A stretch of DNA of 64,000 nt. It comes from Eledone cirrhosa. Lineage: Eukaryota. Within the stretch, counting starts at the first letter, position 1. Every line of letters starts with the position of its first letter. Below, in pieces: positions 30,180-43,328 of the stretch. The notes below the pieces were generated by a model. It was not told where the DNA came from. It did not search any database and worked only from the letters and a program-made list of their open reading frames with translations. The stretch lies in NCBI GenBank assembly GCA_964016885.1, contig OZ024742.1, forward strand, positions 372,000,001 through 372,064,000, written 5' to 3'. Made by a program: the position numbers and the translations under genes.

Positions 30180-30391
30180 GTATATATATATATATATATA
30201 TATGTAGATAAATCTACCAAGAGTTTACGGTAGTGTCCAATCCGTATGAAGAACTCAATGTATTCCGGATATCATGGAAAGAAGAGATGTAATAAAAATC
30301 CAATTTCGGTGAAAGATAAACGGTATACAGAGTCAAGATAAAATATTAAACAAATAATGAACAAACAATTCCTTATATTAAACAAAAAAAG

Positions 30392-30546
30392 TTCACTATT
30401 TAACGATCGTTTCTAGGGTATATATGTGTTATAGTTGGTATGCATATTTAACAGATCTATGTACAAAATTATACAAAATTATACAAATTATCAAGATTAA
30501 ATATACATACCTAACTCATATATACGCCGTCTTCAGAAATAATGAA
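30392..30546 (-). ncRNA. Type I HHR (family A)
   Basis: Same motif as 24598-24752. Confidence 0.8.
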
Positions 30547-31314
30547 GTATATTTATTGATAATAACAACAATTCAAAATATCAGTTCAAAATTGACCAAT
30601 GAAAACACAAAGGGTTAAAAAGCAGTTTGGTGTGTGTATATACATGTAAAAACCTTACACATATTTTACAATAATGTGTGTATAATTTGTATGTGCATAC
30701 TAAAAAGATGGATGTAAATACAAAATTTCAAGGTTAATATCTCTGTAAGCTTAATGCGCTGATAAGATACGCAATGATACTTATGGAGTCAAGCATATAA
30801 ATATATTTTTTTCATACTCACACATATCTGTATAATCACACATACATGTGCGTATATGTATAAATATACACATAACCACGAACATACAAACACACACACT
30901 CCCCCACTCACATTTATATATGTGGATATAAAATCATAAGCAAATAGAAATTAAGTCACTCACATACAAACACTGGTACACACATTTCAAGATCAAGATA
31001 CAGAAATTAGGTGGGAAGGGGGGGGAGGGGTCAGAATTAGATTGTCAGACCAGACAGCCTAATATAAATGTATCTATAAATTAAGAAAAATAAAAAAATA
31101 AAAACAATAAAATAAATACATATAATATAATGTACATACGCATACAGATATACATACACATAGATACATATACGCGCACATAGAGATATCTACACATACA
31201 TACATACACACATACCTATACTGTCATACGCACACATACATTTACACGAATATACACATACACATATAAAAGGATATAAATACACACACACACACGCGCA
31301 ACACATACACATAT

Positions 31315-31361
<47 letters not shown>

Positions 31362-31473
31362 TATACACACACACATAGACTCATATATATATATATACAC
31401 ACACATACATACACATATAGAAACATATATATCCCCACACTCATACCACCATAAAAACACATATAAACACCCA

Positions 31474-39930: not shown

Positions 39931-42357
39931 TTAATTAGGTTTATAATATTTAAATGTTTTTTTTAGTTTATGATTACACGATATAATTAATTCCTGTCTT
40001 TTATTTAATAAGATATCCCTAGACTTCATTATTTCAAATAGTTCTTGGGAACATAATCTACATTCCTTTCTATTATTTTGATAAGGGGTGGCTCTTTTGA
40101 GCACACTCCAGGTCAAATCATATTTTATATTTTTATTTTTATAACTATTGATTTTTTCTGCTAGAGATGTTGTATTAGCCAGTGCGGCATTTTTAAAGCT
40201 ATGTTTGTGGGTATTATACCTTGTCTTAAAATTGTTAGAGGTAGCTCCTATATATGAGCAAATAGAATCTTTAGTTTTAACATTACATTTATAGACTATG
40301 TTGTTAACAAGACAATTCCCTTTTAATGGGCAGTTTGTTTTGTTTCTACAGTTACATCCTTTCGTTAATTCTGTATTTGAGGAGATATTATTGTTAATTT
40401 GATGTACTGGTGGTATACTTATGGTTTTCTTACATTTATATGCATTATATGCACTTATATTTTGTTTTATGTTATTAGTTGTAGAGTATGAGAATTTAAC
40501 TGTAGACCTATTTAAGATTTGATGGTATTTGTGGTTTGGCGGGAAGTTTTTCTCAAGGATATAAAAAAATTTTTTAGCAATATTATCCTTAACTTGTAAA
40601 TTAAAAGGAGCATTATACCAAGTAACTCGTCTATTACGGTTTCTATGTTGTTTATTATTTTTATTATTTTTATATGTTGTATCATGATTTATGTTAATGA
40701 TCTCACCACAACTATTTTTAGTTATATTTGTAGATTTAGGTGTTTTATCTTTTTTATTAGGAGTTTTATTATTAATATTTATTATAGTCGTATGATGAGT
40801 AGTTTTTTGAGGGTTACTATACTTTATATTAGAAGATTTAGTATTTTGGGGTATACTGTGGGTGGCATTTAGGTGTGTACTTTTCATTTGGTGTTTGTTG
40901 GTAATATTATGCTGTATGCTTTCAGTATTTTTAGTAGAAGGTATATACTCTAATCTATTTTTGTGGCCACTTCTATCTAGAGCTTCATTATAAAAGGTCG
41001 CATTTTTATCAAATACATCTTGGTTAGAAGAAAGGTTAGAAATTCTAAGTGATATATTATATGCAAGGTTTTTAAGGATAGATTTAGGGTGATTAGATTG
41101 TGAGTGTATGTAATGTAAGTTTTGGTTAGGTTTATGGTAAGGTTGGTATATACCCGTAGCTAAATCTAAAGTTATATCTAGGAAATTTACTACTTTACTT
41201 GTTTTTTCAAAAGTAATATTAAGATTATAATAGTCTTTAAGGAAAGTTCTAATATGCTTTTTGTTTTTTTCGATTTCTGAAAGGCTAAGGTTGTTAGAAA
41301 GAAGAAGACAGTCATCACGATATAAACCACCTTTGAGGTGGGGAAAAGAGGCATTTATGTTGAAAAGGAGAAAGAGGCCCACAAGATCAGTAATTTGGGC
41401 AGAATCGCTTGAACCCATAGTAATATCAAAAAGATTACTATAAGTGTTTCTGGTCCAGTATTCATTCTGAAATTCAATAAGTGTTTGTCTAGCATGTGTA
41501 ATAATGTTAATGTCATCCGAAGTTAAATTAGATCTATTTTTAGCAAATATTAATGCTTTGTTCAGGAGTATGGGTGATATAGAAGAATAGTAATTATCTA
41601 TATCAAACTGTAGGAAAGAAGCAGAAGATTTACACCTAATATTTTTAAACCAATTAATTACCTGGGAGGTGTTTTCCCAGAGTGGTAAAATAACATATTT
41701 TCTTACTTGTGGGATGACTCTATCTAAAATTTTTTTGCTAATTATTCCAATATCTGATTTGGAGGGACATATAAGTCTAATAGAGGGATTAGAGTTAAAG
41801 TTAGATTTGTGATCTTTCAGGTTGAAGTGTGGACTTCTCAATGCCAAAGGTTCAGTTCTATCTTCAATATTTAGTTTTTTTACTATGTTGTGTGTTTTGT
41901 TGTTGATGTTGGTGAGTGACACACTATTAGATTTTTTATAATTTTTTCTGAGTTCTTTATATATGAACTCATTATAATGTTCAATATCCATATGATACAA
42001 GTTACCAGTTTTGTCCGAGTGGACATGGATTTTTTTAGACTTTTTTAGGTCCAATAGGGTAGAATCAAGGTCCTTTTGAAAGACGGATTTATACTTTTTA
42101 AATTTGAGGTGTTTAATTAAATTAAAAAGGTCTTTCTCGAAGTCTTCAAGTAAAAAGTTGTGTGGTGGATTCTTGTAAGTGTTGAAATCATACATATATT
42201 TCCGATCTGCTTGTTTAGATTTTCTATCGAAGTGGTAGGCTCTCCATCTAACCCTTCTGATAAAATTATTAGTTTTCTGAATCATAAGGAGTAAGAAGTC
42301 GTCCTTAGAAGGTATTGGTATGTTTTTTAAGGAGGTTCCTAAATATTGTTTTTCCAT
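39931..42357 (-). CDS. Intact Naiad-type PLE protein, 808 aa (RT + Cys linker + GIY-YIG endonuclease)
   Basis: ATG at 42357 (MEKQYLGTSLKNIPIP); DKTG, LKDHK, FDI..YSSI, MGS, YRDD, CNC..CPL.G.C, IVY/YIG, CRLC..LLNKR.E...C.H. Confidence 0.93.
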   Translation of the reverse strand: MEKQYLGTSLKNIPIPSKDDFLLLMIQKTNNFIRRVRWRAYHFDRKSKQADRKYMYDFNTYKNPPHNFLLEDFEKDLFNLIKHLKFKKYKSVFQKDLDSTLLDLKKSKKIHVHSDKTGNLYHMDIEHYNEFIYKELRKNYKKSNSVSLTNINNKTHNIVKKLNIEDRTEPLALRSPHFNLKDHKSNFNSNPSIRLICPSKSDIGIISKKILDRVIPQVRKYVILPLWENTSQVINWFKNIRCKSSASFLQFDIDNYYSSISPILLNKALIFAKNRSNLTSDDINIITHARQTLIEFQNEYWTRNTYSNLFDITMGSSDSAQITDLVGLFLLFNINASFPHLKGGLYRDDCLLLSNNLSLSEIEKNKKHIRTFLKDYYNLNITFEKTSKVVNFLDITLDLATGIYQPYHKPNQNLHYIHSQSNHPKSILKNLAYNISLRISNLSSNQDVFDKNATFYNEALDRSGHKNRLEYIPSTKNTESIQHNITNKHQMKSTHLNATHSIPQNTKSSNIKYSNPQKTTHHTTIININNKTPNKKDKTPKSTNITKNSCGEIININHDTTYKNNKNNKQHRNRNRRVTWYNAPFNLQVKDNIAKKFFYILEKNFPPNHKYHQILNRSTVKFSYSTTNNIKQNISAYNAYKCKKTISIPPVHQINNNISSNTELTKGCNCRNKTNCPLKGNCLVNNIVYKCNVKTKDSICSYIGATSNNFKTRYNTHKHSFKNAALANTTSLAEKINSYKNKNIKYDLTWSVLKRATPYQNNRKECRLCSQELFEIMKSRDILLNKRQELIISCNHKLKKTFKYYKPN

Positions 42358-42700
42358 TGTGATATGGATGATGGACAATTGAAAGAGCTCAACTAAATGT
42401 ATATGGGTTTACAAAATCATACATATATATATGTTTATACATAAATATAAAATTAATACACACATACAGTACAAAAATACGAATATTTCCGTGAAAATAG
42501 GAGCAAAATTATGTAGATAAATCTACCAAGAGTTTACGGTAGTGTCCAATCCGTATGAAGAACTCAATGTATTCCGGATATCATGGAAAGAAGAGATGTA
42601 ATAAAAATCCAATTTCGGTGAAAGATAAACGGTATACAGAGTCAAGATAAAATATTAAACAAATAATGAACAAACAATTCCTTATATTAAACAAAAAAAG

Positions 42701-42855
42701 TTCACTATTTAACGATCGTTTCTAGGGTATATATGTGTTATAGTTGGTATGCATATTTAACAGATCTATGTACAAAATTATACAAAATTATACAAATTAT
42801 CAAGATTAAATATACATACCTAACTCATATATACGCCGTCTTCAGAAATAATGAA
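42701..42855 (-). ncRNA. Type I HHR (family A) in the upstream pLTR
   Basis: Tandem copy of the motif. Confidence 0.8.
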
Positions 42856-43328
42856 GTATATTTATTGATAATAACAACAATTCAAAATATCAGTTCAAAA
42901 TTGACCAATGAAAACACAAAGGGTTAAAAAGCAGTTTGGTGTGTGTATATACATGTAAAAACCTTACACATATTTTACAATAATGTGTGTATAATTTGTA
43001 TGTGCATACTAAAAAGATGGATGTAAATACAAAATTTCAAGGTTAATATCTCTGTAAGCTTAATGCGCTGATAAGATACGCAATGATACTTATGGAGTCA
43101 AGCATATAAATATATTTTTTTCATACTCACACATATCTGTATAATCACACATACATGTGCGTATATGTATAAATATACACATAACCACGAACATACAAAC
43201 ACACACACTCCCCCACTCACATTTATATATGTGGATATAAAATCATAAGCAAATAGAAATTAAGTCACTCACATACAAACACTGGTACACACATTTCAAG
43301 ATCAAGATACAGAAATTAGGTGGGAAGG

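Follow-up and report, generated by a model that had tools for sequence, protein, structure and literature searches.

A putative Hydra-clade Penelope-like element with a long, microsatellite-bearing 3' region in Eledone cirrhosa

Introduction

Penelope-like elements (PLEs) of the Hydra clade are characterized in the excerpted text of Craig et al. (2021; PMC8557442) by one open reading frame (ORF) with a C-terminal GIY-YIG endonuclease, RWK, DKT, CxCx5C and CxxC/CxH motifs and a hammerhead ribozyme, and the 27 families listed there span 1,080-3,045 bp. Naiad elements are described in the same excerpts by an N-terminal endonuclease, DKA, CxC and CCHH motifs and the lack of a canonical hammerhead. 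Here we analyzed a tandem array at positions 30,204-43,328 of a 64,000-nucleotide stretch of the Eledone cirrhosa genome (GCA_964016885.1, contig OZ024742.1, positions 372,000,001 to 372,064,000 of the forward strand), referred to as the window. As judged from its motifs and domain order, the array element belongs to the Hydra clade. We read it, with a probability of about 0.7, as a recently active PLE whose 3' non-coding region is swollen with neutral cargo and by which a microsatellite is spread passively. A preliminary description of the same DNA had called the element a Naiad that potentially seeds its own target sites.

Carriage of microsatellites by retroelements is already known. Recently moved Penelope copies of penaeid shrimp contain internal simple sequence repeats, followed by later slippage (Yuan et al., 2021; PMC7878876, in excerpts), and internal repeats moving with the element are common to these copies and the present element. 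In snakes, CR1-L3/Rex long interspersed nuclear elements (LINEs) seed microsatellites (Pasquesi et al., 2018; PMC6050309, in excerpts). Here, too, a retroelement spreads microsatellites, in snakes genome-wide. However, the snake repeat forms the 3' tail of the LINE, whereas the present repeat is internal, lies upstream of the ribozyme and is of the same type as the target. Arrays of SaTar Mutator-like elements (MULEs) in guayule and rice consist of unrelated elements chained via microsatellite targets (PMC5907723, in excerpts). The window shows similar chains, although SaTar MULEs are DNA transposons and the present element is a retrotransposon. The long-tailed variant of a Hydra PLE is new. 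In the open-access literature, with subscription papers and repeat libraries outside the search, we found no description of long-tailed Hydra elements or self-seeded TA targets, and the excerpted texts of PMC13282606, PMC5907723 and bioRxiv 10.64898/2026.07.22.740005 contain nothing on either.

Structure of the tandem array

The array lies on the minus strand and consists of a pseudo-long terminal repeat (pLTR) followed by the units A2 and A1, with a (TA)n array on either side. UTR stands for untranslated region.

43329..43831: target array at the 5' end, pure (TA)n, non-UTR, common to the array and a Neptune-like element
42513..43328, minus strand: pLTR, 816 bp, 5'-truncated, identical to the unit 3' end, starting within the poly-C run
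36359..42512, minus strand: unit A2, 6,154 bp, ORF open
42358..42512, minus strand: leader, about 155 bp, from the end of the previous unit to the ATG
39931..42357, minus strand: Hydra-type ORF, 2,427 bp, 808 aa
36359..39930, minus strand: 3' region of A2, 3,572 bp; the same region of A1 lies at 30204-33775
30204..36358, minus strand: unit A1, 6,155 bp, ORF (36203-33776) frameshifted
29855..30203: target array at the 3' end, pure (TA)n

The 3,572 bp behind the stop codon make up 58% of each unit, which agrees with the preliminary description of a 6155-bp unit with over half 3' UTR. Units A1 and A2 differ only in one homopolymer base and two 4-bp TA slips. The additional base, located near 34,410, causes the frameshift in A1 and is missing from contigs of three runs; it is either a mutation or a sequencing error. 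The faithful copying between tandem units noted earlier was thus found, but it is expected of one insertion event and therefore provides no separate evidence. Read depth rises over the last 400 bp, a signal which mixes diverged subfamilies and restriction sites. With a unit of 6.15 kb, the known size range of Hydra elements is doubled.

Assignment to the Hydra clade

The 808-aa protein is encoded by a single ORF and starts with the reverse transcriptase (RT; motifs at 250-395), followed by a C-terminal GIY-YIG domain (IVY-YIG at 687-704). Further motifs are RVRWR at position 35, DKT at 115, CxCx5C (CNCRNKTNC) at 668, CxxC (CRLC) at 766 and CxH (CNH) at 794. RVRWR corresponds to the RWK of Hydra, with R in place of K as in several homologs. 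No match to G.KF (GxKF) or to C.{2,5}C..C, the CX2-5CxxC finger or linker of Naiad and Neptune, is present in the protein, and CCHH is absent, with a single Cys between IVY and YIG. Together with the hammerhead near the 3' end and the insertion into (TA)n, the C-terminal GIY-YIG and the RWK-type, DKT, CxCx5C and CxxC/CxH motifs correspond to the Hydra description. The departure is the tendency of Hydra elements to short length (<3 kb), and the length of the present unit is regarded as a trait of the variant. A homolog search with the ORF revealed 117 proteins, nearly all unnamed, with 32-48% identity; the same motifs occur in all 14 that were aligned. Pfam gave no significant family for the ORF (best E 0.07). 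The clade placement was made from motifs and domain order, with published reference proteins matched by eye.

The name Naiad had to be abandoned: the endonuclease is C-terminal and not N-terminal, the protein has DKT and not DKA, the CX2-5CxxC finger is missing and a hammerhead is present. CxC and CCHH of Naiad (PMC8557442, in excerpts) are also unmatched here. Common to both are the PLE RT, the (TA)n preference and tandem or inverted insertions. Neptune was rejected as well, as the CX2-5CxxC linker is absent; it was found in the neighboring element (44349-47999). With the Hydra PLEs of the same source the array element shares the motif set, a hammerhead close to the 3' end, insertion into (TA)n and the occurrence of pLTRs and inverted copies. 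It is unlike them in its hammerhead 3.2 kb past the stop, its 116-nt stem II region, its internal microsatellite and an insert of about 85 aa, rich in Asn, Lys and Thr, between the thumb and a WFNPP-like motif.

Related insertions in the window

Two diverged subfamilies of the array element (A), named B and C, and two further Hydra families, D and H, were identified.

15207..24940: subfamily B, 5'-truncated copy (20545-15207, minus strand) and inverted truncated copy (about 20541-24940, plus strand)
2500..4653, plus strand: subfamily C, 5'-truncated tail, with an uncertain left boundary that could extend to 1950
27936..29855, minus strand: Hydra family D, ORF end near 29,597 (iE 1.6e-5), 1,661-bp 3' region, hammerhead at 28,035
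2118..2500: D', short copy of family D with an inverted structure, probably inside the repeat of C
328..1897, plus strand: Hydra family H, inverted ORF piece, ORF pieces 311-617, ORF end near 617, 1,280-bp T/C-rich 3' region

The two arms of B differ by one substitution and four slips over about 4.25 kb. A and B are collinear through the tail via 24 anchors. C shows 79-82% identity to the A/B-type tail over about 730 distal columns, and homology to B was found for one segment of its repeat core, 2895-3030 (score 28.2, shuffled maximum 18.9); six other segments of C or adjacent to C gave no clear homology. A 54-bp end of C is located at 7848-7901. The repeats hence travel with the element, being located between the ORF and the 3' terminus in A and B, which are independent insertions, and to some extent in C, and the earlier statement that they are homologous in diverged subfamilies holds for B by the anchors and for C by the distal tail and one core segment. 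The alternating repeat accounts for 66 bp in the tail of D and 8 bp in that of H. These tails are long yet nearly repeat-free; a long tail here does not require the microsatellite. Since three long-tailed families occur in one window, tail inflation may be a trait of the host lineage.

At 1718-1790 (plus strand), family H carries the 3' half of a hammerhead-like motif (GAAAC, long stem II), whose 5' core is altered; a palindromic copy of the end of H was seen at 55367-55545. Positions 1-328 hold a further A/B-type ORF fragment (97% identity, short 5' inversion), which is joined to H without TA.

Hammerhead ribozyme and 3' ends

36545..36705, minus strand: type I hammerhead, predicted cut after 36557; further copies at 30390-30550 and 42699-42859
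36359..36493, minus strand: optional tail, 135 bp between the short and the long 3' end

The hammerhead of A, B and C consists of a 10-bp stem I, an intact core, a palindromic stem III and a 116-nt stem II region. Its fold has a z value of -5.56, and across the three sequences 98.8% of 167 cells are paired, including one A-U/G-U/G-C series; covariation among these three sequences is not above shuffles (323/500). The palindromic stem III is suited to dimer folding, and self-cleavage is predicted. At gathering thresholds Rfam gave no match in the window, hammerhead included, an E-value scan of the tail gave only sub-threshold, low-complexity microRNA-like matches, and a hammerhead pattern with a stem II of at most 60 nt misses the ribozyme of the array. 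The element illustrates how Hydra elements come to be mis-annotated, with the tail being masked as a simple repeat and the ribozyme going unrecognized by Rfam.

The distance from stop to hammerhead is 3,239 nt in the array units, and the tail is roughly tenfold longer than usual. For comparison, 77 related metagenome loci were collected, 69 of them with a C-terminal match and a stop. A hammerhead was found in 43 of the 69 (23 by a strict rule, 20 by a relaxed rule, 2 of these doubtful), in all cases 33-322 nt past the stop and with stem II regions of 8-30 nt; the other 26, mostly short contigs, gave none. The element provides a natural test for the tolerance of PLE hammerheads to very long stem II inserts.

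Two fixed 3' ends were observed, 63 and 198 nt beyond the predicted ribozyme cut. The short end is found in the minus-strand copy of B, in C and in the fragment 7848-7901, the long end in the A units and the plus-strand copy of B; in one run, 674 raw reads connect the long end with (TA)n. The optional tail of 135 bp exceeds the 30-40 bp described for PLEs (PMC8557442, in excerpts). For a Poseidon element an internal RT start together with a tail has been described (PMC11167929, in excerpts), and over-unit copying from tandem or circular RNA is also on record (PMC4209133, in excerpts). The two ends fit internal RT initiation downstream of an uncleaved hammerhead as well as over-unit copying of this kind.

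Composition and divergence of the 3' region

37250..38592, minus strand: TA/TG repeat core, 1,343 bp, with unique islands
39263..39435, minus strand: small TA/TG block, 173 bp
38925..39631, minus strand: stop-codon region, three decayed copies at +319 (39612-39631), +757 (39174-39193) and +1006 (38925-38944)

The alternating TA/TG repeat amounts to 1,511 of the 3,572 bp (42%), and the remainder is unique. Pure (TA)6+ contributes 216 bp, with a longest tract of 36-38 bp, and TG outnumbers CA by 403 to 94 on the sense strand. TA and sense-strand TG repeats are thus present as reported before, but a region packed with 3.5 kb of microsatellite shrinks to about 1.5 kb. The stop-region relics, all within the first 1.1 kb, are three matches with at most 3 mismatches in 20, compared with 0 in 200 shuffles. 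For a suspected relic hammerhead 80 nt past the stop, duplication of the ORF end is the better explanation. A faint hammerhead-like relic was noted behind the final copy of the stop region, at 38744-38830 (minus strand; match 38744-38767, E 0.41, from a weak model).

A segment of about 525 bp is present in B and partly in C but missing from the repeat core of A. As C shares part of it, the segment was deleted from A, and a nested insertion in B was ruled out. Between the ORFs of A and B, with codon classes counted by hand, we found 17 synonymous (of 309 sites) and 9 non-synonymous changes (of 1,269 sites), which corresponds to 5.5% and 0.7% and a ratio of about 0.13. The unique tail differs at 111 of 1,951 columns (5.7%). 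In these sequence comparisons the ORF is under purifying selection, and the tail behaves like neutral cargo in lineages that have remained active. A mutation process erasing TpA was rejected, as the ORF contains 294 TA, matching the prediction from base composition. Contigs under three organism labels match pieces of the ORF, the proximal tail and the distal tail.

Target sites and proposed mechanism

All 19 identified element 3' ends in the window, with points picked by hand, adjoin (TA)n, so that insertion into (TA)n, which is known for Hydra, was confirmed. The orientation of arrays relative to the abutting 3' ends is balanced in a hand tally (7 vs 7); five pairs are forced by convergent neighbors, and the unforced cases are 2 vs 2. 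A palindromic C-ATAT-G variant (15125-15208, 29855-30203) has 7 of its 8 window occurrences in arrays adjoining Hydra 3' ends. Very pure TA junction arrays of 1.2-3 kb with higher-order duplications are located at 24941-27935, 5929-7848, 53064-54294 and 57421-58885, and a degenerate CA/TA array with 4.9% interruptions at 9053-9645 lies outside all identified elements. Lengthening of TA arrays by insertion itself could be the real feedback loop.

Our reading of a passively inflated Hydra element is based on the domain order and motifs, the ribozyme fold, tandem and inverted forms, the two 3' ends, the (TA)n flanks, selection and tail divergence. In analogy to PLE biochemistry, the GIY-YIG domain would nick (TA)n, and the RT would start internally, downstream of the hammerhead, on an uncleaved tandem or circular RNA. 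As it would copy upstream from there, everything between ribozyme and ORF would be included, and over-unit copying would yield the tandem and the pLTR. With an RT start that does not shift from the far 3' end, any sequence acquired between the stop and the ribozyme would be passed on to all descendants; such cargo may have been stop-region duplicates or truncated kin and one or two old TA/TG arrays. TG on one strand may be explained by clonal spread of TA-array variants via slippage and segmental duplication and a single capture of such an array. The element thus spreads degenerate microsatellite in a passive way and provides a target now and then; a role as the main source of targets is not supported by the present data.

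Alternative explanations

Whether microsatellite-targeting retroelements supply their own targets can be examined here in a natural test. In the feed-forward seeding proposed earlier, carried TA tracts would be a main source of new targets for this and sister families and copy number would feed target number. The tails of A, B and C indeed hold 33 pure tracts of 20-66 bp, a 34th being the flank of C, and insertions at other places (7901, 55345) are bordered by tracts of about 20 bp. In addition, D', the single case of its kind and a copy of a sister family, is probably nested inside the repeat of C, as its flanks are two degenerate arrays (11-12% interruptions) with TG on the plus strand, the right one being the tail of C; the target flank of C itself is pure, with CA on the plus strand. 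As the array to the left of D' could not be aligned with A or B, the nesting is only probable. The claimed insertion inside a UTR therefore stands as probable for 2118-2500; it does not hold for the Neptune-like element at 43,832, where the pLTR starts at poly-C and the flanking array is pure. Other observations speak against the tails as a main source of targets. They cover 17.7 kb (28%) of the window but hold 15% of its pure-TA bases. Purity was scored in ten free junction arrays, of which nine are tabulated as pure (0-1% interruptions, compared with 10-16% in tail arrays); these are without tail islands, so they are not decayed tails. The four young A/B tails contain no insertion, a count of little power, D and H target TA without carrying TA, and all but one of the known Hydra families list (TA)n targets with short tails (PMC8557442, in excerpts). 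Seeding as a main source of targets is considered unlikely. Slightly less improbable, but still doubtful, is an accretion scenario in the host: a copy would enter a (TA)n array located upstream of truncated kin, its read-through RNA would be primed at the most distal start, and kin and target array would become heritable cargo. Dozens of TA tracts per full-length jump would then serve sister families, as with D' in C, this cross-family loop would help to drive genome-wide TA expansion, and the hammerhead would work despite its 116-nt stem II.

TG richness might also have been built by cumulative A>G change during retrotransposition, through adenosine-to-inosine editing of self-paired UA repeats or through RT error. 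UA repeats can self-pair, and in the aligned repeat core of A and B (1,209 columns, the B-only insert segment skipped) A/G differences number 49 against 21 expected, compared with 19 against 17 for T/C. The 27 and 22 A/G differences could all be A>G on two branches. In the distal tail, polarised with C as outgroup (about 730 columns, with gaps and 8 three-state columns excluded), A>G occurs 4 times and T>C 9 times, and G>A 8 times and C>T 2 times (binomial p 0.41 and 0.20). Four runs were mapped on 33285-37235, comprising ORF and unique tail with the repeat core outside, and gave unpolarised counts pooled across regions. Sense-strand variant places, relative to the number of A for A>G and of T for T>C, are 0.036/0.043, 0.031/0.028, 0.019/0.025 and 0.060/0.064, symmetric in all four runs (Fisher p 0.30-0.70). 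No A>G change separates A1 from A2 or the two copies of B, and ORF third positions carry G in only 62 of 809 cases. TG on one strand is generic, since at least 90% of TG/CA variants lie on one strand in 8 of 13 arrays outside tails, in either orientation; one free array contains a 200-bp exact higher-order duplication. Substitutions in unique sequence are thus strand-symmetric, the outcome named beforehand as speaking against A>G accumulation, and one-strand TG also occurs in arrays that no element carries. We regard this explanation as unlikely, less firmly so inside the repeat core. Least credible of all is that the shared tail reflects segmental duplication or assembly error and not retrotransposition. 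In its favor, A1 is almost identical to A2, the assembly of long TA arrays is difficult, and no matched piece spans the whole stretch; but A, B and C differ in their flanks and show fixed 3' ends, a pLTR and inverted copies, the parts named above are matched by contigs under three organism labels, and no joint leading directly from ORF end to ribozyme is among the 12 joints listed.

Several points weigh against the passively inflated Hydra element. The 3' region is a UTR by inference, and a retained intron in the template could account for part of it. The 2.3-fold A/G excess in the repeat core is unpolarised, with no outgroup; unit slippage and the alignment of TA/TG runs are its likely cause. 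All three TG-rich tail blocks share one orientation. The comparison set is biased against long tails with repeats, as its metagenome contigs are short. Finally, no relic ribozymes were found behind the stop-region relics, with a weak, sequence-only model built from the hammerheads of 33 relatives, which scores even real ones at E 3.5-4.7.

In the mapped stretch, unpolarised transversion places are more frequent for sense A>C than for T>G in all four runs (26/9, 23/5, 12/9 and 49/22).

Other elements in the window

43832..48479, minus strand: Neptune-like PLE by motif only, 1,216-aa open frame with DKS, CTNRKCIIC linker and Asn-rich insert; pLTR of about 527 bp; hammerhead-like motif at 44078 and 48201
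10408..15124, plus strand; 48499..51948, plus strand; 4990..5927, minus strand: three near-identical copies of an apurinic/apyrimidinic endonuclease (APE) and RT LINE (Pfam RVT_1, Exo_endo_phos)
52507..53064, plus strand, and 58886..59597, minus strand: inverted pair of a TA-flanked element with a CTGATGA..GAAA motif
54295..55345, minus strand: T/C-rich 1-kb element, hammerhead-like motif at 54387 near the TA-flanked end
55984..57425, minus strand: retrozyme-like array in (TA)n, identical 310-bp tandem units with a hammerhead-like motif in each
59798..64000: satellite of about 22-24-bp units, after an assembly gap

No ORF end was found in the 1-kb element at 54295-55345, which is possibly a fourth long PLE tail. 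All three LINE copies adjoin (TA)n with their 3' ends, and the longest copy has an upstream ORF with a poly-Q tract.

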